DNA of 64,000 bases from Candidatus Acidiferrales bacterium. GTDB lineage: Bacteria > Acidobacteriota > Terriglobia > Acidiferrales > UBA7541. Positions within the stretch are counted from its first letter, which is position 1. Every line of letters begins with the position of its first letter. The DNA is taken from assembly GCA_035943235.1 (NCBI GenBank), contig DASZCH010000129.1, positions 13,229 to 77,228 of the forward strand, written 5' to 3'. Positions 1,122-49,295 of the stretch are shown here, in pieces. The translations under genes and the position numbers were made by a program. The notes under the pieces were generated by a model, which was given only the letters and a program-made list of their open reading frames with translations, did no database searches and was not told where the DNA came from.

Positions 1122-1504
1122 GTGAGCGACGAAACCGAAAAGATCAAGCTCGCGACCGTTGTTTGGGAGGGTGACTCAAGGGAAGTTCTCAAAGCCTTCC
1201 CGGAAGAGGTTACGCAAAACCTGGGGTTTGAGTTATGGCAGCTTCAACAAGGCGAGAGACCCAGAGATTATAGGCCGTTGCCTTCGGTTGGTCCGGGCGT
1301 CTTTGAACTGCGGGATCAAGATGAAAGAGCGCGTGGTATCGGGTCATTTATCTGTCGAGGATCGAAGACGTGATCTATGTTCTCCATTGCTTCGAGAAGA
1401 AAAGTCGCGAGATGCCGAGAAGGGATTTTGAGAAAGCAAAGCAGCGGATCCAAGCCGTGAAGGCGCGATTGGCAGAGGAGAAGAAACGTGAAAAACGCAG
1501 CTAA
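1122..1504 (+). pseudogene. Gp49/DUF891-type HigB-like toxin, frameshifted
   Basis: Frame 0 gives ...VVWEGDSREVLKAFPEEV...GVFELRDQDERA and then runs into junk. The family-typical C-terminus WYRVIYLSRIEDVIYVLHCFEKKSREMPRRDFEKAKQRIQAVKARL continues in the next frame from 1334 to the TAA at 1502-1504. The frame switch lies at about 1329-1336. The GTG start at 1122 is inferred. Confidence 0.75.
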
Positions 1505-1829
1505 CAAACCTACGCATGTAACGCGGGGGAACGTACTCGATGACCTCGGCTTCTCGCCGGAGCATGCGACAGCGCTGAAGTTCAAGGCAGAGCTATACCA
1601 GGCGATTCTGAAGTACTCGGAGAAGTATTCGCAGAGGGAACTGCAAGTGATCCTCGGAGAACCACAGCCGCGTATCAGCGAACTGCTCAACGGGAAGATC
1701 GCGAACAAGAGCGTTGACAAACTGCTTTACTACGCAGGACGCCTGGGCATCGAGGCAAAAGCGAAATTTTCCCAGACGCACAAAGAGGTTGTTGAAAAAG
1801 AGCTTGCGATGGCCGATCTGACGGCCTAG
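1488..1829 (+). CDS. XRE-family HTH antitoxin (HigA-like)
   Basis: Sequence NVLDDLGFSPEHATALKFKAELYQAILKY...SQRELQVILGEPQPRISELLNGK. Its GTG start overlaps the end of the upstream toxin reading frame. Confidence 0.8.
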   Translation: MKNAANKPTHVTRGNVLDDLGFSPEHATALKFKAELYQAILKYSEKYSQRELQVILGEPQPRISELLNGKIANKSVDKLLYYAGRLGIEAKAKFSQTHKEVVEKELAMADLTA

Positions 1830-2037
1830 CTTCCGCTCCGGGAGGCGATGAACTGGCTGCAACCTAACATCGGGTGGATCATGGGGTCAGGACGAAGTTT
1901 GACGTAATCCGCACACCGAGATTTAGACGTGCCAGGGTCGTCGGCTGACGCTACGCCGTGTCTTACGGATGGGGACAACCTCGATCTTTCATCTTCCTCA
2001 GTAGCGGAAGGTTCATTACTTCGGAACGAGAATAGAA

Positions 2038-2370
2038 TCACGCGGTAGCGACAACGCGAAGGTGTCCCTGGCGGCGCGATCGCGGCGCGCGCTTTACGGT
2101 GATTTCAATGTCGCGACCAAGTAGAGTCAGAAAGTGCATGAGCCGTTCAGTCGAGAAGCCCGAAAGCTGACCACGTAAAAGCCGGGAGATTTTTGGTTGA
2201 TCGATCCTCAGTATGTGGGCGGCCCGAGTTTGCGTGAGTCGCCGCATCCGAATGGCCTCGGAAATGCGGATCGCAAGATCGGCTTTTGCGAGACGCTGTT
2301 CGGGGTTGGGCAGGCCGATGTCGGCGAAAACGTTGCCGCTGCCTTCCTCGACCACAATTATCTTCCTCAT
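2038..2370 (-). CDS. XRE-family HTH antitoxin (HigA-like)
   Basis: Sequence NVFADIGLPNPEQRLAKADLAIRISEAI..RRLTQTRAAHILRIDQPKISRLLRGQ. It lies 6 nt downstream of the toxin gene 2377..2763. Confidence 0.8.
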   Translation of the reverse strand: MRKIIVVEEGSGNVFADIGLPNPEQRLAKADLAIRISEAIRMRRLTQTRAAHILRIDQPKISRLLRGQLSGFSTERLMHFLTLLGRDIEITVKRAPRSRRQGHLRVVATA

Positions 2371-2376
2371 TGTCTG

Positions 2377-2763
2377 TTATCCCTTCGGAGCCCCTAGCCA
2401 TCTGGCGTGCTCTTCTTCGGCTCGCTTGAGACGTGACCTGATTAGCTCAATCTCGGGCTTGGGCGTCTTGATTCCAGCCTTTGACTTCTTTTGGAACACG
2501 TGCAAGACATATATGCGACCTGCCAAGCGTACCGTATACACGGCGCGATAAGTATCCCCGGCGTGGTCTCCTATAATCTCCAAAATGCCTGCGCTGCCGA
2601 AGCCCCGCATAGGCTTGGCATCGGCGTGCTTTCCGCCGCGTTGCGCTATGTAGATTGCGTAGCCAATCGCGTCCTTCACGTCTTCTGGAAAGGAAGCGAG
2701 GTCCGCTCTAGTGCTCCCGATCCACACGACCGCCTTGACTCTGGACAATGCCGTCATTTCCAT
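2377..2763 (-). CDS. Gp49/DUF891-type HigB-like toxin (intact)
   Basis: Sequence VVWIGSTRADLASFPEDVKDAIGYAIYIAQRGGKH...YRAVYTVRLAGRIYVLHVFQKKSKAGIKTPK. Same family as the frameshifted gene at 1122..1504. Confidence 0.8.
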   Translation of the reverse strand: MEMTALSRVKAVVWIGSTRADLASFPEDVKDAIGYAIYIAQRGGKHADAKPMRGFGSAGILEIIGDHAGDTYRAVYTVRLAGRIYVLHVFQKKSKAGIKTPKPEIELIRSRLKRAEEEHARWLGAPKG

Positions 2764-3083
2764 ATTATGCCTAAACGAGCATAGGATGCAAGAACTGCTT
2801 CCTGACCGGGCGAATTTAGAGTAACCAGGGTCCTGAATTCACGTATGGAAGGTGTCGGAGCGGAGTTGTTCGGGCAGAGCACCGGAAGCCGATGCGACGC
2901 GCTCTATGGTCAGGGCCCCATAACCTTCAGCCTCTGGCCAGCAGTCGAAAGAGCCCGTTCTCTGCCCTGGCTCAATCTTTGGAGCTGGTAGGCCATTTCG
3001 TTGTTACGCCGTACTTTTGGGTACCGCATTTCAATTGGGCGTTTTGGGCAGGAAATGATGGTTGAACGTCTGCCCTCATTTGG

Positions 3084-3098
3084 GGTAGACTGTCTACC
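3084..3098. promoter_or_regulatory. Perfect 7-1-7 palindrome GGTAGACTGTCTACC abutting the padR-family start codon; candidate autoregulatory operator
   Basis: Read directly from the sequence. The right arm ends 1 nt before the ATG at 3099. Confidence 0.35.
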
Positions 3099-3458
3099 AT
3101 GCCGAGCAACGAAGAAGCAGCCACCAGGCTTGAGCTCATCCAGGGAACACTAGACATGCTGATCCTGCGGACGCTGGTGCTGGGTCCCGCCCACGGACAC
3201 GAGATAGCCAAGCACATTCAGCGGACCACGGACGACGTTTTGCAGGTGGAGCACGGCTCGCTTTACCCGGCGCTCCACCGCCTCAAACGCAGAGGCTGGG
3301 TCAGCGCCAAGTGGGAGACACCCAGGGGCGGTAAGCGCGAATTCAAGTATTACCGGCTCACTTCGGCCGGCAAGAAGCAGCTCCTCGCCGAACACTCCAA
3401 ATGGCGGCAGCTGGTTGCTTCGATTGGTCAGGTGATGGAGCCAGCAAAGGAAGGATGA
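3099..3458 (+). CDS. PadR-family transcriptional regulator
   Basis: Sequence LELIQGTLDMLILRTLVLGPAHGHEIAKHIQ...GSLYPALHRLKRRGWV...EFKYYRLTSAGKK. Confidence 0.9.
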   Translation: MPSNEEAATRLELIQGTLDMLILRTLVLGPAHGHEIAKHIQRTTDDVLQVEHGSLYPALHRLKRRGWVSAKWETPRGGKREFKYYRLTSAGKKQLLAEHSKWRQLVASIGQVMEPAKEG

Positions 3459-3459
3459 A

Positions 3460-6156
3460 ATGGCGATCTGGCGCAGAGTCGAATGGTTGTCCTGGTTTCC
3501 TTGGTATCGTCGCCGGACACGCCATGCTGAACTGGAACGCGAAATGCGCGATCACCTTGAATTGGAAGCTGAAGAACAGCAAGCCGCCGGTCTGTCGGCG
3601 CAAGAGGCGTCTTACGCTGCGCACCGAGCCTTGGGCAACACGCTGAAGATCCAAGAAGATGTGCGTGCGGCATGGGGCTTCCTGTGGCTCGAAACACTCG
3701 CTCAGGACGTCCGCTACGCACTGCGCATGCTGCGCAAGTCTCCGGGATTCACGGTGGTTGCCGTCCTCACTCTCGCCCTCGGCATCGGCGCAAGCACTGC
3801 CGTTTTCAGCTTAGTGGATGCTGTCCTGCTAAAGCCCTTGCCTTTTCCGCATGCCGAAAAAATCGTCTTTCCATGGCGTTTGCCGAAGCGTGGCGTGAAT
3901 CTTGGATTTGCCGTCTATCCCTGGGGCCGGCTCGATTTCTTGTTCTTCTCGCAGCAATCCAGAACCTTTGAAGCTCTGGGCGCTTTCCTGAGTGATTCGT
4001 TCAATCTGACGGACTCAGGCGAGCCGGAGCGGCTGGATGGCCTTCGCGTTTCAGCGGGGTTCTTTCCTTCTCTCGGCGTTTCGCCCGCTTTGGGACGCAC
4101 CTTCACCGATCAGGAAGATCGCCTCGGCAACGAACACGAAGTGATTCTTGGCAGTGCATTGTGGCGGCAAAGATTCGCTTCCAATCCCGAGATTTTGGGT
4201 CACGCCATTGATCTAAACGGCGTTCCCTATATCGTAATCGGCGTGATGCCACCAGGATTTGTTTTTCCCAATTCCCATGAGATGCCCAATGTCTTTACAT
4301 TCGCGCCTCAGACTCAACTGTGGGTTCCTCTCGCCCTCGACCGCCGAAGCACGGCCATTCCGTATGAGTCCGACGAGCTTGCCATCGTCGGCCGCATCAA
4401 ACCTGGCGTCACGATTGCTCAGGCGCAAGCGGACATGGACATAATGGGGAAGCGCCTGGAGAGCGGGAGACGCAATGGAGAAGGATGGTTTAACTCCGCG
4501 GTCACACCGCTCACGCGCCAAGTTGCAGGAAACACTCGCCAACCTCTTTTGCTAATTCTCGCGGCCGTGGGAGTCGTTCTGCTGATTGCGTGTTCCAACG
4601 TTGCGAGCCTTCTTCTCACTCGTTCGCTCAATCGTCAACGCGAATTCACCGTGCGCTCGGCTCTCGGTGCCGGCGCTGCACGTTTGATGCGGCAATTGAT
4701 GACCGAAAGCATCGTCTTGGCGAGCCTGGGCGGAGTAGTTGGAATTTGTTTGGCTGAAGTCATAGTCTACTTCGTGAAGGTTTTCGGTCCTTCTCGTATT
4801 CCGCGTCTTAGCGAAGCCAGTCTCGACATTCGCGTTTTGCTCTTCGCCTTTAGCGTCACTCTCTTCACCGGAGTTCTTTTCGGTTTGGCGCCGGCGCTCA
4901 GTACCACGCGTGAAAATCTTGTGGAATCGCTCAAGGAGGGTGGCCAGCGCGCCGGGTCCAATCTTTCAACTCAGAAAACTCGCAACTCATTTCTTGTTTC
5001 GCAGATTGCTCTCGCGCTCGTTTTGGTTGTCGCCGCCGGGCTTCTAACGCGCACGCTTTATCATCTGCTCGCCGTGAATCCCGGCTTTCGTGGGGAGCAC
5101 TCTCTTACGTTTGAACTTTCCTTGCCGGCCGCAAAGTATTCCGGCCAATCCCACATCGTATCTGTTTATCAAGAGACCCTCCGCAAATTGCGTGCCATTC
5201 CGGGCGTACAGGCGGCCGGAGTTACAGAATTGATTCCGCTCGATGGCGCAACCGAATCCACAGCAATTCGTTTCTCCAACGCCAGACAAGTTACTCCCTC
5301 GAGCCCAGCCTTCGCGAATTACACGATGGTTTCGCCGGGCTACTTTGCCGCTGTGGGAACGCGGATTCTGCACGGCCGCTCATTTCTCGAATCGGATTCA
5401 GCGGATTCTCTTCCTGTCGCAATCATCAGCAGCGCAATGGCTGAAAAGTATTGGCCCGGTCAAGATCCGGTGGGGAAACAAGTCGCGCCCGCGGGTGCGG
5501 CATTTCCGCTTGCCACCATTGTGGGTGTCGTCGCCGACGTCAAGCGTCTTTCGATCCGCGAGTCTCCGCCGCCGGAAATGTATGTGCCGTACACACAAAA
5601 AGTGTGGCCGTCGCTGCTCACGATGGACGTCGTGTTGCGCACGGCACAGGATCCCGGGTCCATCACCGCCAGCGCGCGCAAAGCGATTCACTCGATCGAT
5701 CCGGATTTGCCGCTTTCGAACGTGAGGACGCTTGCGGCCATCGTCTCGAACTCGATGAGTGAGCCGCTGTTCGCGGCGCTGCTCCTCGGAGCATTCGGAG
5801 TGGTAGCGCTGCTGCTCGCCACCATTGGAATGTACGGCGTTATCTCCTACAGTGTGACGCAACGTACGCAAGAAATTGGCCTGCGGATGGCGCTTGGCGC
5901 GCAGCCGCGCAACGTGCTGGAACTCGTCCTTGGCCAGGGTACTCGCCTCGCTATCGTCGGAATTACCGTCGGTCTTGCCGCCGCCTTCGCGACAACGCGT
6001 TTCATGAACGGGTTCCTGTACGGTGTCGGAGCGCTCGACCCGCTCACCTTCCTTGTCGTTTCATTGCTGCTCATGGGCACCGTCCTCCTGGCCTGCTACA
6101 TTCCCGCGCGCCGCGCGATGCGCGTGGATCCAATGGTAGCCCTCCGGTATGAATAA
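3460..6156 (+). CDS. ADOP-family duplicated FtsX/MacB-like ABC transporter permease
   Basis: 898 aa. N-terminus ELEREMRDHLELEAEE...DVRYALRMLRKSPGFTVVAVLTLALGIGA. Two FtsX-type membrane modules. C-terminus YIPARRAMRVDPMVALRYE. Starts 2 nt after the PadR gene. Confidence 0.9.
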   Translation: MAIWRRVEWLSWFPWYRRRTRHAELEREMRDHLELEAEEQQAAGLSAQEASYAAHRALGNTLKIQEDVRAAWGFLWLETLAQDVRYALRMLRKSPGFTVVAVLTLALGIGASTAVFSLVDAVLLKPLPFPHAEKIVFPWRLPKRGVNLGFAVYPWGRLDFLFFSQQSRTFEALGAFLSDSFNLTDSGEPERLDGLRVSAGFFPSLGVSPALGRTFTDQEDRLGNEHEVILGSALWRQRFASNPEILGHAIDLNGVPYIVIGVMPPGFVFPNSHEMPNVFTFAPQTQLWVPLALDRRSTAIPYESDELAIVGRIKPGVTIAQAQADMDIMGKRLESGRRNGEGWFNSAVTPLTRQVAGNTRQPLLLILAAVGVVLLIACSNVASLLLTRSLNRQREFTVRSALGAGAARLMRQLMTESIVLASLGGVVGICLAEVIVYFVKVFGPSRIPRLSEASLDIRVLLFAFSVTLFTGVLFGLAPALSTTRENLVESLKEGGQRAGSNLSTQKTRNSFLVSQIALALVLVVAAGLLTRTLYHLLAVNPGFRGEHSLTFELSLPAAKYSGQSHIVSVYQETLRKLRAIPGVQAAGVTELIPLDGATESTAIRFSNARQVTPSSPAFANYTMVSPGYFAAVGTRILHGRSFLESDSADSLPVAIISSAMAEKYWPGQDPVGKQVAPAGAAFPLATIVGVVADVKRLSIRESPPPEMYVPYTQKVWPSLLTMDVVLRTAQDPGSITASARKAIHSIDPDLPLSNVRTLAAIVSNSMSEPLFAALLLGAFGVVALLLATIGMYGVISYSVTQRTQEIGLRMALGAQPRNVLELVLGQGTRLAIVGITVGLAAAFATTRFMNGFLYGVGALDPLTFLVVSLLLMGTVLLACYIPARRAMRVDPMVALRYE

Positions 6157-6440
6157 ACGCAGAGTACTAAATTCCAACTTAAATACTTTCAAGGAGGAAT
6201 CATCATGAAGGGTTGGCATGTCTTGTGGAGGGCCATCGAGGCAAATTTCAATGCATCGCGTGGTTCGCGAGTGTTTTTGTGGCGTGGCGGAGAATCGATT
6301 GCTCCATTTGCGTAACCGCTACTCCTGCCGTTTTTCGCCTTTTGTTTCGTGCCAGCAATATTGGCAGGCACGACAAACGGATCGTCCCCTTTCCAAAACC
6401 AGTCTCGCATGGAGGCATCATCCATCAGTACGGGCATGGA

Positions 6441-7973: not shown

Positions 7974-8492
7974 GGTCTCAACCAACATACGGCAGAGACA
8001 AACAACCTGTCCATAAATTAGGATCTCGGGCACTCGCTCGCCAGATCGCCTACCTTGGGCGCACCGAACCCGACTCCAACAGCTCCTTCTCTTAGTTCTA
8101 ACTGCTAAGGGTTCCAATAAATCGGGGAATCTGGGTTTCGCTCAAAGCCATGATAACTTCGGGGCAGCACAACATGGGAAGCTCCAGTTGCCACAGTGGC
8201 ACTGACTCCGTGTTACCGGAACGAACCGAACCGTCTACCGAACGATGGAAAGGACACAAGAATCGGCGAAACCGCAAATAGAACCCCAGCGCTTATGACT
8301 TCCTTTGAAATGCGGTTTCGTCGTTACGAGCGCGCAAAGTCGAGAAGGGGCTTTCGACGTGTCGCGCACTTCCTTCATCAGGTCACCTTCAATCAACACC
8401 TCACGTCCCTTAACTAGACGCCTGCTGCCGTGTCCCCCACTTGGCCTTCACGGAAAATAATCCTCGGCATCGTTTGTACTTCTCTGTCCGCA

Positions 8493-9962: not shown

Positions 9963-10007
9963 TTGCGGCGTTCCTCCGAGTTTTCCGCAAATGATCGAGA
10001 GACCATA

Positions 10008-10859: not shown

Positions 10860-10871
10860 GATTGAACAGAA

Positions 10872-12191: not shown

Positions 12192-12199
12192 GTTGTTCC

Positions 12200-13174: not shown

Positions 13175-13208
13175 TGGATTCCTCGCGTTCGCACAACCCG
13201 CTCTTGCT

Positions 13209-20890: not shown

Positions 20891-20986
20891 GTGACTCCCC
20901 CCTTGGCCGAAGTCGACGATTCGTCCATCACGATCAAGGCATGGAACGCGGCCATCAGGATTCGTGGTTCACGCTAATTCCACTAG

Positions 20987-25150: not shown

Positions 25151-25837
25151 ATGAAATCACAGGAACTCAAGCAGGCTCGCCAGCACAGAAGCTGGACGCA
25201 GGAGGCCGCAGCTAGCCGCATGGGGGTAACCCAGACCTATTTGAATCTGCTTGAAAATGGGAAACGGCGGTTGACACCTCGGGTGGTTCGCCGGGCCGTT
25301 TCTGTCTACGGCCTGTCGCCGGAGGTTCTTCCCCTTGAAGAGGATTTTGTGCCAGCCCGGACAACCGATGACCAATTAGTGGAGTGGTTGGCGAGACTCG
25401 AATATCCGGGTTTCGCTTACTTCAAAACGCATACCGCAAGGAAGAACCCTTATGAGGTGCTGCTTACGGCATTGGGACAGACGAGTCTCGATGGCCGCGT
25501 GGCGGAGGCCTTGCCGTGGGTAGCGATGAAGTACGCGCGGCCGGAGACATGGCTGGTTGAGACTGCCCGGAAATTCAATCTTCAAAACAAACTGGGTTTT
25601 GTCGTTAGGCTTGGGCGGCGTGTGGCCGAGAGTCATGGAGACGACACCAGATTGAAGGAACTCGGCAAGCTCGAAGAGATGCTTGAGGAGAGCCGTCTTG
25701 CGAAAGAGGGTTTTTTCTATCGTCCCCCCATGACCGAGAAAGAACGCGAGTGGCTTTCGAAGAATCGAACCGCCGACGCGGTACACTGGAACCTGCTCGC
25801 GGACATGCGGTCGGAACAGCTTTCCTATGCCCGATGA
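25151..25837 (+). CDS. XRE-family HTH protein with uncharacterised C-terminal domain (putative antitoxin/regulator)
   Basis: Sequence LKQARQHRSWTQEAAASRMGVTQTYLNLLENGKRRLT. Its C-terminal domain is shared with 244..939. Confidence 0.85.
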   Translation: MKSQELKQARQHRSWTQEAAASRMGVTQTYLNLLENGKRRLTPRVVRRAVSVYGLSPEVLPLEEDFVPARTTDDQLVEWLARLEYPGFAYFKTHTARKNPYEVLLTALGQTSLDGRVAEALPWVAMKYARPETWLVETARKFNLQNKLGFVVRLGRRVAESHGDDTRLKELGKLEEMLEESRLAKEGFFYRPPMTEKEREWLSKNRTADAVHWNLLADMRSEQLSYAR

Positions 25838-26378
25838 AACGCCCCGCGCTAAGCTCCCTTCACCGTGGAACGACTTCCTCGGAGAGATCGACAAAGCGTT
25901 AGAAAAACCGCTCGAAATCCACTGCATCGGAGGTTTTGCGCTCGTCTACTATTACGGGATTCCGCGCACAACCGGCGATATCCACTACTACACGGCTGTG
26001 CCCGCAGACCTCAATTTAGAAGAAATGACTGGCCATGATTCCGACCTGCATCGCAAGTATAAGATCTATCTTCATCGAGTTACGGTCGCAACTCTGCCTG
26101 AAGGGTACGAAGAGAGACTTTCGGAAATGGCGAGTGGACAGTTCGAACGGCTCAGGCTTCTCGTGCCCGACCCCTACGACTACATTTTGTCGAAGTTGCA
26201 GAGGGCGGGGTTGAAGGATTCCGACGACGCCTTGTATTTATTCCGAACGAGAAGGCTAAAAAGCGAAATCCTTCGAGAGCGGTATCACCGGGAATTGAGG
26301 GATTATCTGATTGGCCCGCTCGAACAGCATGACGGGACTTTGGAGCGCTGGATCGAAATTTTCGAATCAGCGGGTTGA
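25827..26378 (+). CDS. Small nucleotidyltransferase-fold protein (DUF6036-like), putative toxin partner
   Basis: Overlaps the upstream gene by 11 nt. Minimal NTase-like motif IHCIGGFALVYYYGIPRTTGDIHYY (GG..x..GD.H). Confidence 0.65.
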   Translation: MPDETPRAKLPSPWNDFLGEIDKALEKPLEIHCIGGFALVYYYGIPRTTGDIHYYTAVPADLNLEEMTGHDSDLHRKYKIYLHRVTVATLPEGYEERLSEMASGQFERLRLLVPDPYDYILSKLQRAGLKDSDDALYLFRTRRLKSEILRERYHRELRDYLIGPLEQHDGTLERWIEIFESAG

Positions 26379-31391: not shown

Positions 31392-31553
31392 TCAATCTCC
31401 AGTAGCAGCCCGGCCGTGCAGCGTAAGTAAGCTGGACAATGCCGGACGGGAAACCTGAAGCGCAGCGGCGGCTGCCGTCACTGAGAGGCCGGCAGGGGCG
31501 ATGATCTCCGTGCGAATAAAATCGCTGGGATGAGGGGGGTTCTTCATGGGCAT
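31392..31553 (-). pseudogene. higA: Truncated HigA-type antitoxin (53 codons)
   Basis: MPMKNPPHPSDFIRTEIIAPAGLSVTAAAAALQVSRPALSSLL.. matches the N-terminal two thirds of HigA-family antidote proteins. It then stops early at TGA 31392-31394. Confidence 0.55.
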
Positions 31554-31572
31554 GTTGTTTGCTCCTGTTGTT

Positions 31573-31656
31573 CTAGTGATAGTCTTCCAAATTTAGATCG
31601 CAAATTTCGTGCTCCGCTGTGTCAATGCGAAACGTTAACCGGATTAGTGGTGTGCG
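31573..31656 (-). pseudogene. higB: C-terminal remnant of a HigB (killer protein) toxin
   Basis: The frame reads RTPLIRLTFRIDTAEHEICDLNLEDYH*, the family-typical ..W/LR.TFR......D....DYH end. An in-frame TAG lies immediately upstream, and there is no start codon. Confidence 0.4.
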
Positions 31657-31979: not shown

Positions 31980-31988
31980 AGAGGCGTT

Positions 31989-32444
31989 ATGAAACCTGAA
32001 TACAGAGAAATGAGACAGCGCCAATTATCGAAAAGCCTCGCGGCATTTGAAGTTGCAAAAAGCAACCCACGCCCACAGCTCGGCTGGCTCCGTGCCATCC
32101 GGGAAGCGTTGGGGCTCACCCTGAATCAAGTAGGCAAGAATTCGCGGACGACACGACAGCGGATCAAGAGTTTCGAGGATGCTGAACGGCAAGATCGGAT
32201 CACGCTTGCTAGCCTTCGCAGGGTTGCTGAGGCTATGGGATGCGAACTTGTCTATGCAATCGTCCCCAAGTCAGGAACCATTGTCGAACTTGCCGAGAAG
32301 GAGGCCCTAAATGAAGCCACAAAGCGGGTACTTGCTGTTGAACACACCATGGCGCTGGAGAACCAAGCCCCAGGAGATGTAAATGAGACAATCGCCGAGG
32401 AAACGAAGCGACTACTTAAACGGCCAAGATCGCGAGCCCGATGA
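31989..32444 (+). CDS. Mobile mystery protein A (XRE-type HTH)
   Basis: Sequence PRPQLGWLRAIREALGLTLNQVGK...RQRIKSFEDAE..DRITLASLRRVAEAMGCELVYAIVPK. Its stop overlaps the downstream start (ATGA). Confidence 0.85.
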   Translation: MKPEYREMRQRQLSKSLAAFEVAKSNPRPQLGWLRAIREALGLTLNQVGKNSRTTRQRIKSFEDAERQDRITLASLRRVAEAMGCELVYAIVPKSGTIVELAEKEALNEATKRVLAVEHTMALENQAPGDVNETIAEETKRLLKRPRSRAR

Positions 32445-33043
32445 TCAACATCTCAAATCTCAATCTGTCACCTGGGAATACACCTCTCGAACCCGACGAA
32501 TTGGCTCAACTAATCCCTAGTCTGGCAACCAAGGGCGAACTCGATGAATGAGAACGAAAAAACATCATCGAAGCACACGAGTGGGCCCTAAATCCCCGAC
32601 GCGTAAAGGCCAGCAATCCATTTACCGAGCCTTATCTTCGTGAACTTCACAGAAGAATGTTTGATCGCACCTGGAAATGGGCTGGTACGTATCGCCATAC
32701 CGAGAAAAACATCGGAGTCCTCGTGCATGAAATCAGAAATCGAATCCCCGCACTCCTTGGAAACATTCGTTATTGGGTGGATCACCAGACCTTCCCTGCA
32801 GACGAGATAGCAATTCGCTTTCATCACGAATTGGTTGGCGTTATTCACCCATTCCCGAACGGAAACGGAAGGCATGCCCGCCTTCACGCCGATGTCATCG
32901 CGGTGAAACTCGAAAGGCCAGAATTTACGTGGGGCCAGAACAGTATCGTGGGCACTGGCCCTGCGCGTGAAGCTTACATAAGAGCCCTACACGCAGCGGA
33001 CAACGGTAACATTCAAGAATTACTAAAGTTCGCTCGCTCTTAA
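32441..33043 (+). pseudogene. Mobile mystery protein B (Fic-domain protein) interrupted by an in-frame TGA
   Basis: The frame from ATG 32441 reads MINISNLNLSPGNTPLEPDELAQLIPSLATKGELDE-TGA(32549-32551)-ERKNIIEAHEWAL...LHRRMFDRTWKWAGTYR...HPFPNGNGRHARL (Fic motif). Family-like sequence is present on both sides of the stop. Confidence 0.8.
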
Positions 33044-37277: not shown

Positions 37278-37342
37278 TTGGGTGGGGGAGTGGAGGCACC
37301 GTCGCTCCTTTTTCTTCCTGGCGAGTGAAGGAGATCAAGATC

Positions 37343-40300
37343 ATGACTAAGTGTGTCAACTCAGTGTGTATCGCCTCGTTGGCTCTCACCTGCTTGCTTT
37401 TTGGCGGGGCTTCGCTCGCCGCGCGGACCGTGCCGCCCAATTTTTACGACAGCATGCAGTGGCGCCTCATCGGCCCCTTTCGAGGCGGTCGCGTGGAAGC
37501 GGTGACGGGGATCCCTGGCAATCCGCTCGTCTACTATTTTGGTTCAGTTGCCGGCGGCGTGTGGAAAACGGTGGACGGAGGCCACACGTGGCTGCCGCTG
37601 TTCCAAAAAGAGCCCGTTTCCTCGATTGGCGCCTTAGCTATTGATCCTTCCGATCCGGAGGTAATTTACGTCGGCACCGGAGAGGCCTGCCCTCGTGGCG
37701 ATATGTCCTTCGGCGATGGTGTTTACAAATCTTCGGATGGCGGAAAGACCTGGTCAAACTTGGGCCTGCACGATACACGGCACATTGCCAAGATCATCGT
37801 GGATCCGCGAAACCCGGAGATAATCTATGTCGCTGCGCTCGGCTCAGTGTATGGGCCAAGCGAAGACCGCGGAGTGTTTCGTTCCAATGACGGAGGAAAA
37901 ACCTGGCAAAAAGTGCTTTTCCACGATGCCAGCACGGGGGCCATTGATCTGGCGATGGACCCACACAATCGACATGTACTCTTTGCCGCCCTCTGGCAGG
38001 TTCGACGAAAACCCTGGGATTTTACCAGCGGCGGTCCAGGAAGCGGACTCTACCGCTCAACGGATGGAGGGGATCATTGGACAGAAATTAAAGGCCATGG
38101 TCTTCCTGTCGGCGTGCTCGGCCGGATCGGCGTCAGTGTGGGCGCTCAGTCGAATCGGATTTATGCCATCGTTGAGGCGAAAGATGGCGGCCTTTACCGT
38201 TCCGACGATGGGGGGACAAACTGGAATCGGGTGAACGGAAGCTGGGATTTGCGCGGCCGCCCCTGGTATTACTCCCATATTTTTGCCGATCCCAACCATG
38301 TTGATGAAGTCTATGTCTTTAGTTTCGGGGCGTATCGCTCAGTGGATGGGGGAAAGACGTTTGCTGCGCTTTACACGCCGCACGGAGATTACCACGCACT
38401 GTGGATTGATCCTCGGGACTCCCGGCGGCTGATTGTGGGAAATGATGGCGGTGCCACGATTTCGGTCGATGATGGGACGAGCTGGACTACAGAAGACAAC
38501 CAACCCACGGGCCAGTTCTACCGCGTAGCTACGGACAATCGATTCAACTACTCTCTTTACGGATCCCAGCAAGACCGGGGAACCGTTGCCATCACCACGA
38601 GGAGCGATGAGGCCCTTATTAGTCAGAACGACTGGTTTTCGGTTGGGGGAGGCGAGAGCGGATTTGTTCTGCCTTCGCCTCTCAACTCTGACGTTGTCTA
38701 TGCGGGAAGCCTGTATAGCACGTTCACACGCTTTGACCGAGGCGCCGCGCAATCGCGGGATATCTCACCTTGGCCTCTCAATGAACTGAATCTTCCCGCG
38801 AAAGATGCCCGCTATCGCTTCGGGTGGACTGCTCCGATGCTGATCTCCCCGCATGACCCGCACACCCTGTACATTGGGGCGCAGGTGCTATTCAAGACTC
38901 GGGATGAAGGCAAGACCTGGGATGTCATCAGCCCCGATCTGACGCGAAACGATAAATCGAAGCAGAATTCTGCTGGTGGCCCGATCACCCAGGACAACAC
39001 GACAGTCGAATACTTCGACATGATTTCCACACTCGCGGAGTCCCCGCTCCAATCGGGACTGATCTGGGTGGGAACGGACGATGGATGGATCCAGGTCACA
39101 CGAGATGCCGGTAAAAGCTGGGTAAACGTCACCCCGAAAGGAATGCCGGAATGGAGCCTCGTGAGTATGATCGAGCCGTCTCGCTTTTCTGTCGGTACGG
39201 CCTATGCCGTAGTCGATGACCATCAGCTCAATGACTTTAGGCCGCACGTTTATCGCACTGCCGATTTCGGCCGCACCTGGTTATCTATCACGGAAGGTTT
39301 ACCGGCCAATTCGTACGTGCATACCGTGCGCGAAGATCCAGCGCGGCGAGGCTTGCTTTACGCAGGAACCGAAACCGGAGTGTTTGTCTCTTTCGACGAT
39401 GGGAGTCACTGGCAATCTCTTCAACTGAACCTTCCGACGGTGCCGGTGTATGACGTCATGGTTCACGAAAATGATCTGGCCGTAGCCACGCATGGACGTG
39501 GTTTCTGGGTTCTCGACGACCTAACCCCCTTGCGGCAGGCCGCAGAAGCTTTGGCGAGCACCGGTTTTTATCTCTACCGACCCGAGCCCGCCTATCGCGT
39601 GCGCGGCAATAACTTCTATGCGACCGTCTCTTCGGGTTCGCCCAGCAGCCCTGTGGCGGGACAGAATCCTCCTGCTGGCGCCATACTCGACTACTATCTC
39701 ACGGCACAGCCTCAGACATCCGCCAAGCTTGAGATCGTTGACGATAAAGGAAGAATTGTCCGGGAGTTCGACCTGCATTCGGCTGCGGTCTCGGCAAGCG
39801 GAAAGCAAGTGCTCATCAGTGCAGGCGCTGTGACCCTCGCGGACGGCCAGGAGTATGGGACTGATCCCACAGTGCACCGCGGCCTCAACCGCTTCGTCTG
39901 GGATCTGCTATACCAAGGGAACGAGAGTAGCCCCAGGGGCATGAGAGTCCCCGAGCCGCTGGTAGTACCGGGGAATTACGCGGTGCAACTCACCGTCGAC
40001 GGCAAAACTCAGAAGCAGCCGCTCGTGGTGCGCGAGGATCCTCGGGTCCAGGTTTCTCTCGCAGATCTGCAGGCGCAATTTAACCTGCAGAGCAAGATTG
40101 CCGATCGTTTGCAAGAGGCCGCAGTCGCTGTTGCTGAAATGAAGCAGGTGCGTGGTGAGCTTCTGGCTCTCGGCAAGCGAATGGATGCATTGGGAAGTCC
40201 AGAGAAACTTACGAAAGCCCTCGACAGCGTAGAGAGCAAAACTGAAGATGCGCAAAGATCCATCACAGGCTGGAAGGCGGCGGGCGATGGTTATGCGTTG

Positions 40301-40537: not shown

Positions 40538-40547
40538 CCCGAGCAGC

Positions 40548-41876: not shown

Positions 41877-41928
41877 GGAGTTCGCTCCTCGGCACGAACC
41901 GTTCGGACTTTCTGACCCCGCAGCGTTC

Positions 41929-43326: not shown

Positions 43327-43350
43327 TAATCCACCTCCGCTGCACTGCTG

Positions 43351-45516
43351 CTATTTGTGAAAAACCAGCCGGCCGTTCTTGACGACGGCGACGATGTTTC
43401 TCAAGCTCTTGATGGACGCAAGCGGGTCGCCGTGAACGACGATGATATCGGCGCGACGGCCCACTTGGATTGTGCCGAAATCATCTCCTCTGCCCAGCCA
43501 AGAGGCCCCACTCCCAGTCGCCGCTCGGATGATCTGCTCACGAGGAATACCGGCCTGCTCGTAGGCCTCCAGTTCATCAAAGAGGCTGCCGTCGTCGGTG
43601 CCTGCTAAGAGAGGTACTCCCGCGGCCACAGCATTGTGCACGAACTGCGACATCCGTCCGTAGCTCTGCTCCCAAGTGGCAACTTCCTCGAGACTGAGTT
43701 CTTTACGCAGGGAAGGAGCGGGAGACTGGATCGACAAGGTCGGGTCAAAGCCAATTTTCGCCCGCGACATGCTGGCAATCAATTCCTGGGCGCGAGCGCC
43801 GTTGGGATCGATGTTTCGCCAGTCCGCTTGCATTCGCGCGACGAGGTGCCATGCAGCATCGAGAGTGCGGTCAGCTCCTTGCGGCTGGGCGCTCGCGGGA
43901 AGAAATTCCGGCCATACGCGGATGTGGTTGAGACCGTCGATTCCGGCGCCGATGGCTTCGGTCCAGCTCGTCCTCACTCCGATGTGTCCGGTGACCCGCA
44001 GGTGGTCTCGATGCGCAGCCTCGATCACGGCCCTGAGGACTTCCGGCTTCAGCAGAAAGTAAACCTTCAACAGATCCACACCCTGAGCCTTGAGCGAGTC
44101 AACCAGGGGCTTGGCTTGTTCTGCCTGGTTGATCTGGACCGCAACCATCGGATGGTAGGTTCCGAATCCATCAATCAATGGCCCAGCGGTGTAGATGTCC
44201 GGACCCGGCTCGAGACCCAGCGCGATGGCTTCCTTGAAGTTTAAGCTATCCGCCAGATCCGCTCCCGGATCTCGAATGCAAGTAATGCCCCGGGAAAGCA
44301 AGCGGGAGCCGCCAAAAGCGTCCCAGAAATGGTAGTGGTTATCCATCAGGCCGGGAAGAACTGAATCACCTTGCGCATCGAAAACCGGAATGCCGGCAAT
44401 ATCACCGGGGCGGAACGCCCCATGCTGAATCTTGACAATGCGCCCTCCACGAATGAGGACGCTCGCATCAGCAATCGGCGGACGGCCTGTACCATCGATC
44501 AAATGGGCATGGATGACCAGGAGATCGGAGGGCCATTGCGGTGGAACTTGGAACGCCACGTGAAAAGGAATCGGCGCGAGCGCTCCGCTAGAAATATCCA
44601 GGCGGTAGAGTTTGCGGGCTGCGCAAACGATCAGGCTGTTCGCGTCTGGTCCGAACGTGATTTGTTCATCCTGATATGCGCTGCGGAAGACCACTCGAGG
44701 TTTTCCGCCGCCCTCCGCCTGGTCGACACGGATCTCGTCTGCCCCGTTGCCGGTCTCCACGTACGCGACTCGCACTCCATCTCGGCTCCATGCAACGCTC
44801 GTATCGTCGAAGGGAGTGTTTGTAAGGCGGACCGCCCGCGTCTTCTCGACGTCCATCATGTAGAGATTTGCGCCGCCATAAAGCCCCGAGGTCAGAAGCA
44901 GGCGCTTCCCCGAAGGCGACGGCGCAAAAGACCACTCGTGCCACCCGCGAGTCTCGGTAATCTCTTCCGGTGCGCCTCCGCTGGTGGGGATCTTCCAAAT
45001 ATGGGCATCGCCTTGACCATGGCGCACCGTGAAGAAAATGTCGCCCCCCGCAGGGTCATAGGCGATTTGGCCGATCACTCCATCAGTTTCATAAACGACG
45101 GCCCAAGTCCCGACTGGGATATCGTAGACCACCAGATAACTGTGATAGTCCACCTCATGCGAAAACGCCAGAAATGCGCCATCGGGCGACCAAGCAGGGA
45201 AGCGGTCCCACCCGATACCTGATGAAATTAGTTGTCCCGTACCGCCGGCAGCAGGCAAGAGACAGATCCTACCCAGCACGCTGACGGCAATCCGGGTTCC
45301 GTCGGGGGACATGGCCGGGTCTCTCGCGCCATGGTCGACGACCACCGATCCTGGTCCGGCCCAAAGCGGTGGGGCAAAAAAAGCCACAGAGATCACCGAG
45401 AGAACAATCCCGAGAAATCCAGACAGACCGACCGGAAGAAAGCGCAGCCACAAACTCCCGGAATTATCAGAGCCGACGATAGAGCTTGAGCGGGAGCTGC
45501 AGAATTTGGATCTCAC
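43351..45516 (-). CDS. Membrane-anchored/exported TolB-like PD40 beta-propeller fused to a metal-dependent amidohydrolase
   Basis: N-terminal TM segment. PD40 repeats (MSPDGTRIAVS, WSPDGAFLAFS, PSPSGKRLLLTS, WSRDGVRVAYV). Amidohydrolase motifs VLPGLMDNHYHFWD, ..VTGHIG and ..LAGTDDG. Confidence 0.8.
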   Translation of the reverse strand: MRSKFCSSRSSSIVGSDNSGSLWLRFLPVGLSGFLGIVLSVISVAFFAPPLWAGPGSVVVDHGARDPAMSPDGTRIAVSVLGRICLLPAAGGTGQLISSGIGWDRFPAWSPDGAFLAFSHEVDYHSYLVVYDIPVGTWAVVYETDGVIGQIAYDPAGGDIFFTVRHGQGDAHIWKIPTSGGAPEEITETRGWHEWSFAPSPSGKRLLLTSGLYGGANLYMMDVEKTRAVRLTNTPFDDTSVAWSRDGVRVAYVETGNGADEIRVDQAEGGGKPRVVFRSAYQDEQITFGPDANSLIVCAARKLYRLDISSGALAPIPFHVAFQVPPQWPSDLLVIHAHLIDGTGRPPIADASVLIRGGRIVKIQHGAFRPGDIAGIPVFDAQGDSVLPGLMDNHYHFWDAFGGSRLLSRGITCIRDPGADLADSLNFKEAIALGLEPGPDIYTAGPLIDGFGTYHPMVAVQINQAEQAKPLVDSLKAQGVDLLKVYFLLKPEVLRAVIEAAHRDHLRVTGHIGVRTSWTEAIGAGIDGLNHIRVWPEFLPASAQPQGADRTLDAAWHLVARMQADWRNIDPNGARAQELIASMSRAKIGFDPTLSIQSPAPSLRKELSLEEVATWEQSYGRMSQFVHNAVAAGVPLLAGTDDGSLFDELEAYEQAGIPREQIIRAATGSGASWLGRGDDFGTIQVGRRADIIVVHGDPLASIKSLRNIVAVVKNGRLVFHK

Positions 45517-45519
45517 GAC

Positions 45520-45936
45520 CTAGCCTCGGACGACCTGGATGGTGACAGAAACTTCCGCTGTGGGTCGCAGCGACGCAGCCACGCTGCAGTACTTGGCATT
45601 CGAGAGCTCGACTGCTTGCCTCACGGCATCTTCAGAGAGATTTGGGCCTTTCAGGACATGATGGACTCGGATAGTTTCATAAAAGCGAGGAGCTTCCTGA
45701 CGGCGCTCACCTTGAACCTCAATCCGATAGTCGGTTACGTGCTCGCGCTTCTTAGCGAGAATATCGACAACGTCCGAACCCATGCATCCTCCGATCGCGA
45801 GCAGCAGCAACTCGATCGGCGTTGGCGCCGAACTTCTTTCGCTGTTGGTCTCCATAACCAGGGCCTGCCCGCCCGGACCGATCCCCACAAAGAAACCGTT
45901 GCCGCCGTAGTGCACGGTAGCGTTGATCTCTGCCAT
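45520..45936 (-). CDS. OsmC/Ohr-family peroxiredoxin-like protein
   Basis: 138 aa. Sequence ELLLLAIGGCMGSDVV and ...AKYCSVAASL (two conserved Cys). Its stop is 3 nt from the next start. Confidence 0.85.
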   Translation of the reverse strand: MAEINATVHYGGNGFFVGIGPGGQALVMETNSERSSAPTPIELLLLAIGGCMGSDVVDILAKKREHVTDYRIEVQGERRQEAPRFYETIRVHHVLKGPNLSEDAVRQAVELSNAKYCSVAASLRPTAEVSVTIQVVRG

Positions 45937-46097
45937 TCTGCTCTCCTTACCTGATGTTAGGGTTGATGGACGACGTGACGAGCGTATAATGTGGGTTCCT
46001 ACACTAGCTGTCCAATGAATTTGATAGATGAAACCTATGCTTCTTAGGAAACGGTTCGGGCGCGCATCGTAATAGCGGGTGAATCCTCAAGGAGGTT

Positions 46098-47117
46098 TTG
46101 ATGGAGTTGCGCCAGATCGAAATTTTTAAAATGCTTGCCGAGGAACTGAACTTCACGCGAGCCGGCAGAAGGATCCACTGCGTGCAGTCCAACGTGAGTG
46201 TGCAGATACGCTCTCTTGAGAAAGAATTCGGAGTCCAGTTATTTGAGAGATTAGGTCAGAAGGTGCGTCTGACAGCTCAGGGGCAAACGTTCCTACCATA
46301 TGCAGAACGCATTTTACGGTTGATACAGGAAGCCGCCGCAGTCACCAGAGGTGGTGAGAATCCGGCAGGAACTTTGATCATCGGCATGCCGGAATCCGTG
46401 CTCACCTATCGTCTGCCGCCCGTACTTCAAGTCTTTCGGGGGAACTGGCCGCACGTCGAACTGGTCTTTCGCGGAATCAGCTCCCTTGAGCTCATTCCCT
46501 GCTTGGAGCGCGGTGACCTGGATCTCGGGCTGGTCATCGATGATGCGATCCGGATCCCGGGAATTCATGCAGAGGTCTTGTGCAACGAGCCGTTAGTGCT
46601 AACTGTGCAGCCTGGACATCCGCTTTTGCGCGCGCCGATTGTTCAACCCGAGGATCTCGGATCCTATACTTTTCTGCTTACGGACCAGGGTTGCGCTTAT
46701 CGCTCTAAACTTGAGACGGCGCTGGCGCGCGTGCACGTTCGGCCAAGGACGGTCATGGAATTTACAAGCGTTGAAGCGATTAAGCAATGCGCTGCTCTGG
46801 GGATGGGAATCGCCTGTCTGCCCAAGATTGTTGTGGAGCGTGAGCTCGCTAGTAACAAACTGGTTGTTCTTCCAGCAGCGAGTTTCGAACTGACGATGAA
46901 TACGTTGGCGGTCTGGCATCGGGACAAATGGATCTCCCCAGCGATGAAGGCCTTCCTTTCGCTGATCCGGTTGCACCTGGGCAGTGCATCTATTTCTAAT
47001 GTCCCAACAAAAAGTCCGGCGACGGTCATTGACGGACGGAAGCCTGCAGCCGGTGCCGTGGGAAAGAGCTGTGAAGCCCGGATGACTTCTGGGAGACACC
47101 GCGGAGTCGCACCGTAG
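46098..47117 (+). CDS. LysR-family transcriptional regulator (divergent from the osmC operon), with an atypical ~40-aa C-terminal tail
   Basis: Sequence LRQIEIFKMLAEELNFTRAGRRIHCVQSNVSVQIRSLEKEFGVQLFER. The tail SASISNVPTKSPATVIDGRKPAAGAVGKSCEARMTSGRHRGVAP does not resemble LysR family sequence. Confidence 0.85.
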   Translation: MMELRQIEIFKMLAEELNFTRAGRRIHCVQSNVSVQIRSLEKEFGVQLFERLGQKVRLTAQGQTFLPYAERILRLIQEAAAVTRGGENPAGTLIIGMPESVLTYRLPPVLQVFRGNWPHVELVFRGISSLELIPCLERGDLDLGLVIDDAIRIPGIHAEVLCNEPLVLTVQPGHPLLRAPIVQPEDLGSYTFLLTDQGCAYRSKLETALARVHVRPRTVMEFTSVEAIKQCAALGMGIACLPKIVVERELASNKLVVLPAASFELTMNTLAVWHRDKWISPAMKAFLSLIRLHLGSASISNVPTKSPATVIDGRKPAAGAVGKSCEARMTSGRHRGVAP

Positions 47118-47264
47118 CTTTTGCTCGGACATCAGTCCATCGTCTGGTTTCAGGAATACCAACGCGACCCGAGCGGGAAAGACATCCTCGAAACGCTGCT
47201 CACCTATAACCGCGAGGACTGCATAGCCATCAAGTCGGTCGAAGAATGGCTGAGGCAACTCTAG
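47118..47264 (+). pseudogene. C-terminal fragment of a RecB-like/TM0106-type nuclease
   Basis: Directly after the lysR TAG, and in the same frame: LLLGHQSIVWFQEYQRDPSGKDILETLLTYNREDCIAIKSVEEWLRQL*. The YN.EDC.A....WL tail is typical of that family. There is no upstream body. Confidence 0.35.
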
Positions 47265-47381
47265 GTCCTTGGGAGTGTTCGAAAATCCATGGGTTGGGAG
47301 CCCCTAAGCGTCTTTTTTAGCGTTTACATATAACGATAAATATATATTGACAAACGATATGCCCTAAATTAGTGTGAAAGT

Positions 47382-47861
47382 ATGAAAAAAACCTCAACAA
47401 CATTCCTTCAGGTGGTTATTGTGCTCATCGGCGTTGTGGCGCTGGCCATTATGATCCGGTTCCCCTGGACCGAGGGGAGAGCCGCAAACTTGGACCTGTT
47501 GCATATTTACGCTGATCCATTCCTGGCGTATGGGTACCTAGCGTCTATCGCATTTTTTGTTGCCCTGTATCAAGCGTTCAAACTACTCGGATATGTCGGG
47601 CAAAACAAAGCATTCTCTCTCAACTCTGTGAAGGCTTTGAGGACCATAAAATATTGCGCAATTGTACTGAGCATTTTAATTGCGATGGCAGGACTATATA
47701 TAAGGATATTTCATGCTAAAGATGACGATCCGGCGGGTTTTCTTGCCATGTGTATTGTCACTGCCTTTATTTCTATCGTGATCGCCACTGCGGCGGCCGT
47801 GTTTGAAAGGATTCTGCAGAATGCCGTCGATATGAAGTCTGAGAACGACTTAACGGTATAA
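47382..47861 (+). CDS. DUF2975-type membrane protein
   Basis: Four TM segments. AT-rich relative to neighbouring sequence. Canonical pairing with the downstream YozG-like HTH gene. Possible promoter: TTGACA 47347-47352, 17 bp, TAGTGT. Confidence 0.7.
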   Translation: MKKTSTTFLQVVIVLIGVVALAIMIRFPWTEGRAANLDLLHIYADPFLAYGYLASIAFFVALYQAFKLLGYVGQNKAFSLNSVKALRTIKYCAIVLSILIAMAGLYIRIFHAKDDDPAGFLAMCIVTAFISIVIATAAAVFERILQNAVDMKSENDLTV

Positions 47862-47868
47862 ATGCCCC

Positions 47869-48072
47869 ATGGCGATCATCATTAACATCGACGTCATGCT
47901 GGCAAAGCGAAAAATGAGTGTCACCGAGCTTGCCGAGAAAGTCGGCATCACGATGGCAAATATTTCCGTGCTGAAAAACGGGAAGGCAAGGGCGATCCGG
48001 CTATCGACCTTGGAGGCGATTTGCAAGGCGCTTGGTTGTCAGCCCGGAGATATTTTGGAATACAAGAAATAG
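47869..48072 (+). CDS. Small XRE/YozG-like HTH transcriptional regulator
   Basis: Sequence IIINIDVMLAKRKMSVTELAEKVGITMANISVLKNGKARAIRLSTLEAICKALGCQPGDILEY. Confidence 0.85.
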   Translation: MAIIINIDVMLAKRKMSVTELAEKVGITMANISVLKNGKARAIRLSTLEAICKALGCQPGDILEYKK

Positions 48073-48199
48073 GCACTCGGTTGCGCCGGCAAAAATATTG
48101 AGGAACTATATGCAAGGCTACTCTGATTTTTTGAGGGCGTCGGAAATCGTGGTAACCCGACTGTGCACGAAGTGTGCACGAATCGAAGGTTTTGAGGGT

Positions 48200-48350
48200 A
48201 TTGGGGTTAGCTTTTGAGCGAAAGCAGATTCTCCGATTTGTTGTAAACGCTAGCAGTTAAAGTGAGCGAGGCGGCTGTTAGAAGCGACTCGCGCGCTTTG
48301 CAAGAAGGGTCGCACTAGCGATAGAGCGCCTGCCTGCTGAGCAGGTGGTC
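48200..48350 (+). repeat. Imperfect direct repeat flanking the AbiE cassette (copy A)
   Basis: The core ATTGGGGTTAGCTTTTGAGCGAAAGCAGAT (48200-48229) recurs at 50066-50096 with one substitution and a 1-nt indel. Weaker colinear similarity follows (TTGTAAA, TAAAGTGA, GCTGAGCAGGTG). Confidence 0.6.
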
Positions 48351-48377
48351 TCCCATTTCTGAATTTGATTGAAATCT

Positions 48378-49295
48378 TTAGCACCAGGGCCCGCACGGTT
48401 CCCAGCGTTTAGCGAACGGACTGCCGTCGAGCAAAGCCGTTGCGACGGGCGTCAAGAAACGCTTTACGTTTTCGACTACTTCCTTGAGTTCGGTCTTCGT
48501 AACGTATGTCGCGTTTCTGGTACAGAATGCGGTCCACTGCTTCTTCTTATCCGTGTCGTTATAGAACTCGGGTGTGAAAGCGACTGGGGTGCCGGCGGCC
48601 GGTAGCTCAGTTCCGCGTCGCTCGAATGTTTTGCGGATCGCTTCGCCAAGCATTTTGCCGTCGAAATCGAGACTCCGCGAAAGAGCTTCAAGATCATAGA
48701 AGTCTTTCATTCGGCTGTTGGCGATCCCGAGCTTAACTATGGCCTCGAATTTTTCCGCGACAACCGTTTCCTTGGGATAGGTGAGAAGGCGAGGATTGGA
48801 TGCCGCTAGTAGCGTGGGATATTCAGTTTCGATGGGTGGGGGAGTTACGACATCTCCGAATCCGATATCGGTCTGAATCGGAATACGCGCGCGCTCAAGG
48901 TACGCCGTGAATGTCACGCGCACGCCTCCCTAGTCGGCGTCCTCGGTGATGCGCTCGGCTTTGACCGACCCAGCGTCGAAGGTTAAGCCATCAGGTTCAA
49001 CTTCAGTGGCGCAAAGTTCCTTGAAGATCGCCACGAAACGTTCGGGGGAATTGTCGCCCCGTGCGAGGAAATCCGCGTCTCTCGTGGCGCGGTAGGTATG
49101 TTTTGTCCAGAGTTCGAAGAGCAACGCGCCTTTTAGGACGAACGTATTGCGGTGCTTTGAGCGGCTGAGGCGATACAGAATTCTCTCAAGACCGTACTTC
49201 ACGAGAATCAACCCGAAGTCTTCGTTCCGTGAACGAGCCAAGTCGAGCAATTTCTGGCGTACCGAGGCCGCGAGGTTCTTGGGTTCATGCGGCAC
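48378..49295 (-). pseudogene. abiEii: AbiEii/DUF1814 nucleotidyltransferase toxin interrupted by an in-frame TAG
   Basis: The N-terminal part (49295..48933) ends ...KAERITEDAD-TAG(48930-48932). The same frame continues GGVRVTFTAYLERARIPIQTDIGFGDVVTP..., so the two track ORFs (48930..49295 and 48378..48923) are one gene. Confidence 0.8.

Follow-up and report, generated by a model that had tools for sequence, protein, structure and literature searches.

Probable toxin-first erosion of toxin-antitoxin-like modules in an accessory-rich stretch of an uncultured acidobacterial genome

Why should a single stretch of a bacterial chromosome carry several visibly broken toxin genes, most of them beside a regulator gene that is still whole? 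The question is raised by 64,000 nucleotides of a soil Candidatus Acidiferrales bacterium (assembly GCA_035943235.1, contig DASZCH010000129.1, here C129, positions 13229-77228), a stretch that we refer to as the window. The metagenome-assembled genome (MAG; G000) to which it belongs comprises 245 contigs and 3.82 Mb at 57.4% GC, with a completeness of 94.6% and a contamination of 0.55%. A sequence-only reading had described five toxin-antitoxin (TA)-like modules with disabled toxins, and with some corrections all five are found decayed at or near the positions it gave. They belong to a set of seven TA-like pairs in the window, comprising three with point-lesioned toxins (a Gp49/HigB-like toxin, a Fic-domain protein, and the nucleotidyltransferase AbiEii), two deletion remnants, and two intact pairs, so that five of the seven are decayed. 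We consider it probable that they record the ordinary erosion of horizontally acquired chromosomal TA and abortive-infection modules, seen at several stages within one accessory-rich stretch. All seven pairs are TA-like, and their pattern of decay is known toxin-first erosion and not a new system. Domains were called with Pfam and TIGR profiles at curated cut-offs and defence functions with PADLOC, while the reality of each lesion was judged through the exact products of intact neighbour genes, matched in public Logan and European Nucleotide Archive (ENA) assemblies.

The Gp49/HigB-like module occupies 1122..1829, close to an intact paralogous pair:

1122..1504, plus strand: Gp49/HigB-like toxin pseudogene (PF05973), two half-matches in different frames
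1488..1829, plus strand: HTH_37 antitoxin of the broken Gp49 (Pfam HTH_37), intact, 113 aa
2038..2763, minus strand: second Gp49 (2377..2763)/HTH_37 (2038..2370) pair, both genes intact

Part of the toxin gene lies in frame 1 (1122..1373) and part in frame 3 (up to the stop at 1502-1504). Its first part, in the frame of 1122, ends GVFELRDQDERA, and the remainder reads WYRVIYLSRIEDVIYVLHCFEKKS... in the other frame. Against PF05973 (cut-off 23.9) the halves reach 24.3 and 43.9 bits; once joined, they are up to 94% identical to intact 126-aa proteins, which run without a gap through ...DERAWYRV.... In the nucleotide alignment, the window has AGA GCG CG TGG where the intact genes of four sister genomes (G024, G046, G007, and G021) have AGA GCG TGG. 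As these four lack the extra CG, the lesion is a 2-bp CG duplication in the GCGCG run at 1329-1333, which places exactly the frameshift that had been read near 1330. The start of the HTH_37 gene (1488) overlaps the end of the toxin gene (1504), and its product aligns from end to end with the orthologues of four relatives at 88-95% identity. The neighbouring intact Gp49 matches PF05973 with 84.5 bits over positions 2-90 of 90, and its HTH_37 partner scores 85.2 bits. The module resembles the Gp49/HTH_37 and HigB/HigA type II TA pairs in that the toxin gene lies upstream, the genes overlap, and the products have the usual lengths (126 and 113 aa); in addition to the intact paralogous copy 200 nt off, more such pairs are present elsewhere in the genome. 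The window departs from these type II pairs in having one frameshifted Gp49 and a higBA pair cut to a 219-bp scrap.

The second point lesion lies in a module of the mobile mystery protein type, at 31989..33043:

31989..32444, plus strand: mobile mystery protein A, an HTH protein (TIGR02612), intact, 151 aa
32441..33043, plus strand: Fic-domain mobile mystery protein B, a single frame with one TGA at 32549-32551

The TGA noted at 32549 is indeed in frame and corresponds to a TGG>TGA nonsense mutation at codon 37. Read through, the Fic protein matches TIGR02613 with 227.9 bits (cut-off 124.4) over positions 2-186 of 186. Its Fic motif is HPFPNGNGRHARL, which, compared with HxFx(D/E)GNGRxxR, has P at the D/E position. 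The A protein scores 113.5 bits against TIGR02612 (cut-off 122.6) over positions 3-140 of 150. Gene order, the 4-nt overlap, the Fic motif, and the full-length TIGR02613 match are those of the mobile mystery A/B family (TIGR02612/TIGR02613; PADLOC candidate PDC-S04/SoFic), from which the window's pair differs by the TGA at codon 37 of the B gene and by an A protein slightly under the cut-off. PADLOC returned only candidate-level matches for the Fic protein, and a literature search found no experimentally shown TA or defence role for mobile mystery A/B. Among sampled relatives of the genus, the MobAB pair was found in none. An ENA contig from another sample (L025; ERZ25416450) is 99.35% identical to the window over 1.5 kb and reads G at 32551 where the window reads A, which restores TGG for TGA and with it an intact 200-aa Fic open reading frame (ORF). 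Besides 32551, the two Fic genes differ at one position, which is synonymous, and the MobA protein of this contig is identical to the window's and adjoins the intact Fic partner. Since an intact TGG is present in a 99.35%-identical contig from another sample, the TGA is a natural, recent, and segregating null allele.

The third point-lesioned toxin belongs to an AbiE module at 48378..49894, which is bracketed by a direct repeat:

48378..49295, minus strand: AbiEii nucleotidyltransferase toxin, one frame with a single TAG at 48930-48932
49295..49894, minus strand: AbiEi antitoxin/regulator (PF13338 and PADLOC AbiEi), intact, 199 aa
48162..48351, plus strand: left copy of an imperfect direct repeat of about 190 nt bracketing the abiE cassette
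50029..50183, plus strand: right copy of the same repeat

AbiEii matches PF08843 with 155.8 bits across the stop, and PADLOC AbiEii matches both halves. Intact orthologues of 305 aa occur in G022 (91% nucleotide identity) and G012 (89%), and the TAG GGA of the window corresponds in both to TAC GAA (Tyr-Glu). The in-frame TAG read at 48930 is thus a TAC>TAG change, and it cuts the gene into pieces of 121 aa and 179/181 aa. AbiEi has the same length (199 aa) and is intact in the window, G022, and G012. The order of the two genes, an AbiEi HTH gene followed by an overlapping DUF1814 nucleotidyltransferase gene (1-nt overlap, TAGTG), and the strong Pfam and PADLOC matches are those of the AbiE type IV TA/abortive-infection system, a kinship that sequence comparison suggests; the difference is that the window's AbiEii is split by the TAG. 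A metagenome pattern search at the lesion returned only a distant homologue with an intact Tyr-Glu and nothing at strain level. At 48917-48935 (minus strand), the two substitutions behind the AbiEii TAG also give rise to a GGGAGG that precedes an in-frame GTG by 7 nt, and the gene caller behind the Logan record starts the 179-aa C-terminal fragment at that GTG. A repeat search assigned the flanking repeats to families D1, D2, and D4 with a spacing of about 1867; they match no tRNA and no Rfam family, and pieces of the element match many loci in sister genomes. The repeat could be a genus-wide intergenic element at which small cassettes insert or recombine.

Two further modules have lost most of their toxin to deletion, and one of them has an intact paralogue in the window:

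244..939, minus strand: orphan XRE-HTH regulator (Pfam HTH_3/HTH_31), full length, 231 aa
219..257, minus strand: 13-codon N-terminal stub of a DUF6036 (nucleotidyltransferase-fold) gene, the rest deleted
25151..26378, plus strand: paralogous XRE (228 aa)/DUF6036 (183 aa; 25827..26378) pair, intact, 11-nt overlap
31392..31656, minus strand: higBA scrap, 22 terminal codons of HigB (31576-31641) and some 44 initial codons of HigA (ORF 31392..31553)

The decayed nucleotidyltransferase gene that had been placed at 66..257 holds for the 13-codon DUF6036 stub (219..257), the rest of that ORF being spurious. At a homologous locus (L022), a 191-aa DUF6036 (PF19502) gene follows the XRE gene with a 14-nt overlap; the stub MPHPDSVPEPWQS matches MPHLDLAPEPWRS of this protein, and no similarity is seen past that point. 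The remainder of the 63-codon ORF at 66..257 is unrelated to DUF6036 and overlaps a convergent plus-strand gene at its 3' end, which lies at window 124. Homologues of the orphan regulator are likewise 231 aa long, and the two-gene architecture is conserved in the intact window pair and at L022. An unrelated farmland metagenome contig (L020) carries at 1193-1310 a DUF6036 gene independently truncated after 36 codons, beside an XRE gene 79% identical to the window's. The orphan XRE gene was found in none of the sampled relatives of the genus, and PADLOC gave no match for the DUF6036 protein. The pair of an XRE protein of about 230 aa and a DUF6036 protein, which lost its DUF6036 gene independently in the window and in L020, may represent a still uncharacterised TA or defence family of AbiE-like type, a reading that we regard as unlikely.

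The higBA scrap had been described as a 27-codon HigB tail beside a truncated HigA. Both genes are truncated as proposed, and the tail amounts to the last 22 codons of HigB and not 27. What survives is a 219-bp piece (31424-31642) that contains the HigB end, the spacer, and about 44 HigA codons. It was identified through its 94% nucleotide identity to an intact higBA pair on a contig of the same genome (C135), as the HigB/HigA (PF05015) domains are not recognisable. No further HigB or HigA sequence occurs within the 64-kb window, and insertion of the mobAB cassette into higB, which was considered as a simple split of the gene, is therefore unsupported. About 1.6 kb from its intact higBA, contig C135 (7.5 kb) also has an HTH_26 gene 97% identical to that of the window (47869..48072; match 47862-48099), and because it holds both, C135 and C129 share pieces of a duplicated or mobile segment. 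Elsewhere in G000, at C111:78679-78738, 20 residues share 85% identity with the C-terminal end of the C135 HigA and may be a further higA scrap.

The HTH partners that had been called full length are so by comparison with their homologues (XRE 231 aa, HTH_37 113 aa, MobA 151 aa, and AbiEi 199 aa). The rule that the toxin is broken and the regulator kept applies to Gp49, Fic, and AbiEii, and it does not extend to the two deletion scraps, the XRE gene with its DUF6036 stub and higBA. The higBA scrap does not fit because both of its genes are truncated.

How old are the three knock-outs? The sequence-only reading had proposed comparing the orthologous loci of sister genomes and estimating dN/dS. 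The Gp49 pseudogene compared with its orthologues has a dN/dS of 0.07 at a dS of 0.36. For AbiEii, all pairwise comparisons give a dN/dS of 0.22, with the window copy and without it, and AbiEi has a dN/dS of 0.10. Counted as unique codons in AbiEii (synonymous/nonsynonymous), the window branch has 19/16 and the intact branches 19/10 and 19/18. As dN/dS holds no trace of relaxed constraint, the three knock-outs are young relative to the divergence of the species.

Are broken genes simply common in this genome? A high genome-wide pseudogene rate would have removed any excess among the toxins, and the rate is low. Only 2 of 122 control-domain matches in the same genome are broken (Response_reg 2/74, ABC_tran 0/48). 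The two are receiver domains without N-termini (C151:55209-55442 and C163:411-665) with premature stops or scrambled stretches, which look like genuine pseudogenes. When 320 ORFs from 400 kb of the relative G016 were searched by tblastn against the genome, 239 orthologue-like matches contained at most 1-3 plausible lesions, or about 1%; the many internal stops also seen were set aside as over-extended N-termini or spurious antisense ORFs of crude gene calls. Coding-like ORFs of at least 150 codons make up 78% of the genome. A genome-wide codon-usage scan on both sides of in-frame stops yielded 980 candidates and no discrimination. The genome is not riddled with pseudogenes, since about 1-2% are broken among both the control genes and the G016 orthologues. 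The toxins of the genome in the families searched, by comparison, fall into three classes:

Intact toxins (n = 14): Gp49 (three), PIN (four), HigB (two), DUF6036 (one), HicA (one), MazF (one), and HipA (two)
Point-broken toxins (n = 3): Gp49, Fic, and AbiEii
Deletion remnants (n = 2): the DUF6036 stub and the higBA scrap

No ParE/RelE was found in the genome. By Fisher's test, point-broken toxins (3/17) exceed broken control genes (2/122) at p = 0.013, and with the remnants included (5/19) at p = 0.0005. Broken toxins exceed the genomic pseudogene background, on small numbers, and the excess is real.

Decay of this kind is not confined to the window's host. In a survey of 31 genomes of the genus, about 3-4 of the 11 AbiEii matches are partial or contain stops (G016, G045, and G017), and among some 33 Gp49 loci several are incomplete or split, one of them (in G013) into two pieces; overall, decayed AbiEii or Gp49 copies occur in G016, G045, G017, G013, and G007. 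The G013 copy (C15:99528-99792) is a homologous Gp49 in two Pfam half-matches, with what looks like an independent frameshift. The lineage is therefore not special, as its sister species also hold decayed copies of both toxins. The abiE module was found in two sampled relatives and the window's Gp49 module in four, each time in a different context. The TA-like modules of the window are accessory, high-turnover loci.

Could the lesions not exist in real cells at all? It is very unlikely that they are sequencing or assembly errors, or the product of a chimeric MAG consensus, with the toxins intact in the organism. The genome is a MAG in 245 contigs and other samples hold the population at only about 2x coverage, which would favour such an error, but the Logan contigs of run SRR12418381, which another assembler built, agree with the window at 100% identity over the Gp49 frameshift (L026), the Fic TGA (L024), and the AbiEii TAG (L033). 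Because this independent assembly reproduces each of them exactly, the point lesions are not assembler artefacts. They consist of two substitutions and one dinucleotide insertion, none of which is a homopolymer error; 120 of the 122 control-domain genes are without a stop, and long window genes of 829-1244 aa are open. The preference of the sequence-only reading for a biological cause over systematic assembly error is upheld by the independent assembly, the TGG polymorphism, and the low background of broken genes. It is extremely unlikely, moreover, that the stops are decoded as amino acids or that the frameshift is programmed, so that the toxins are still made. The TGA stands where relatives have Trp and the TAG where they have Tyr, as recoding would have it, but TGG and TAC are also expected to give TGA and TAG by a single nonsense step, and three kinds of lesion would require three recoding mechanisms. 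In addition, TGA, TAG, and TAA all end ordinary genes here, with 120 of 122 control genes free of internal stops, the stops in the G016 comparison all lie in over-extended N-termini or spurious ORFs and involve all three codons, and the extra CG of Gp49 is absent from relatives.

If the lesions are real, selection may have favoured them. Under positive selection for toxin loss, costly effectors would be lost as null alleles were swept, and the HTH genes would be kept as anti-addiction, immunity, or regulatory genes; we regard this as unlikely. Consistent with it, one genome has lost three unrelated toxins in recent, independent events and retains the partners of all three intact, the enrichment over background is at p of about 0.01-0.0005, and in L020 the DUF6036 partner of the window's XRE family was lost in a separate event. 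Against it, 14 other toxins in the genome are intact, the intact Fic allele persists in a near-identical strain (L025), sister species have comparable toxin decay, the lesions are so young that selection on the orphaned antitoxins cannot be measured, and the toxin-first asymmetry is predicted without any selection for loss. The fuller proposal that a selective episode favoured the loss of AbiEii, Fic, and Gp49, with their HTH partners kept as immunity or anti-addiction genes, and that XRE/DUF6036 is possibly an uncharacterised AbiE-like family, is no likelier. The claim that selection acts against active toxins in this lineage was thus not sustained, given the intact toxins, the similar sister species, and an asymmetry that the logic of TA decay leads one to expect.

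Ordinary erosion accounts for the asymmetry in the following way. Any mutation may knock out a toxin gene, as a 2-bp slippage and two nonsense substitutions did in the window, and such a loss would be harmless to the cell. Loss of the antitoxin first would leave a stable toxin that poisons the cell once the labile antitoxin is gone, and because such loss would be lethal, only toxin-first decay would survive to be sequenced; for the same reason, the asymmetry requires no selection against toxins. The antitoxin or HTH gene would then persist, neutral or mildly useful, until deletions take it too. On this scheme, Gp49, Fic, and AbiEii would represent an early stage, and the XRE gene with its DUF6036 stub and the higBA scrap a late one. 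We infer both the mechanism behind the asymmetry and the role that the surviving regulators now have or lack.

Such erosion has been documented before. Belot et al. (Mol Biol Evol 2026; PMC13617665) counted 185 cases in which only the toxin was pseudogenised, 186 in which both genes were, and 8 in which only the antitoxin was. Decay of TA systems via nonsense mutations and deletions has been described by Fraikin et al. (PMC7167474), where the decay of ccdO157 is cited from Mine et al. 2009. The window agrees with these accounts (PMC13617665, PMC7167474) in that point mutation or truncation disrupts the toxin ORF and the antitoxin is intact, with both genes later reduced to remnants, and in its patchy, high-turnover regions with intact copies in relatives. 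It differs in its host, an uncultured acidobacterial MAG and not Photorhabdus or Escherichia coli, and in including the type IV/Abi-like AbiE, a Fic pair, and XRE/DUF6036, which are known here from their sequences. Orphan antitoxins have been reviewed as remnants or possible anti-addiction genes (PMC7354431), and the full-length antitoxin/HTH genes beside dead or missing toxins resemble them. The difference is that a dead toxin is still visible beside each, so that these are remnants of cognate pairs and not solo genes.

Several points weigh against ordinary erosion as the explanation of this window. The Logan assembly and the MAG probably share their reads. XRE/DUF6036 and mobile mystery A/B count as putatively TA-like by architecture alone, and the toxin inventory covers the families that were searched. 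The enrichment numbers are small, and the window was chosen after the pattern had been seen, which makes the tests post hoc. Lastly, three recent knock-outs on one contig exceed the chance expectation from the roughly 10-30% of copies that are decayed per family in relatives.

Other irregular genes were observed in and near the window. At 50237-50590 (minus strand), a small secreted-protein gene that follows an efflux operon has a frameshift-like lesion near 50303; the last 22 codons of the gene (50293..50590, minus strand), KVALTGKLSADKLTVDSVTTAK, lie in the other frame, and a paralogue on C114 has a matching C-terminus. The Logan contig carries the same sequence at this position, and the gene looks like a non-TA pseudogene or a C-terminal variant. 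A 32-codon ORF at 63496-63594, MCNRYRLTHAQRYLAERF..., resembles the N-terminus of SRAP/YedK and then stops, and it is probably a deletion remnant. About 8.3 kb upstream of the window, on the same contig (L018; C129 4629-4979), a MazF/PemK-like ORF matches only Pfam positions 37-108 of 109; its N-terminus is unrelated and no upstream antitoxin gene is visible, so it may be a truncated orphan toxin. Finally, six small ORFs (64-137 aa) with low coding scores and no Pfam matches form a run at 38057-40255 (minus strand).

The in-frame stops and the frameshift represent true alleles, not assembly noise, and annotators of this MAG should call the three toxins pseudogenes and not active defence or TA systems. 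The Fic TGA/TGG allele pair, at 99.35% identity, could be used to test the toxicity of mobile mystery protein B. Toxin-first erosion, which has been documented mainly in Enterobacteria, extends to uncultured Acidobacteriota and to modules of the AbiE and Fic types.

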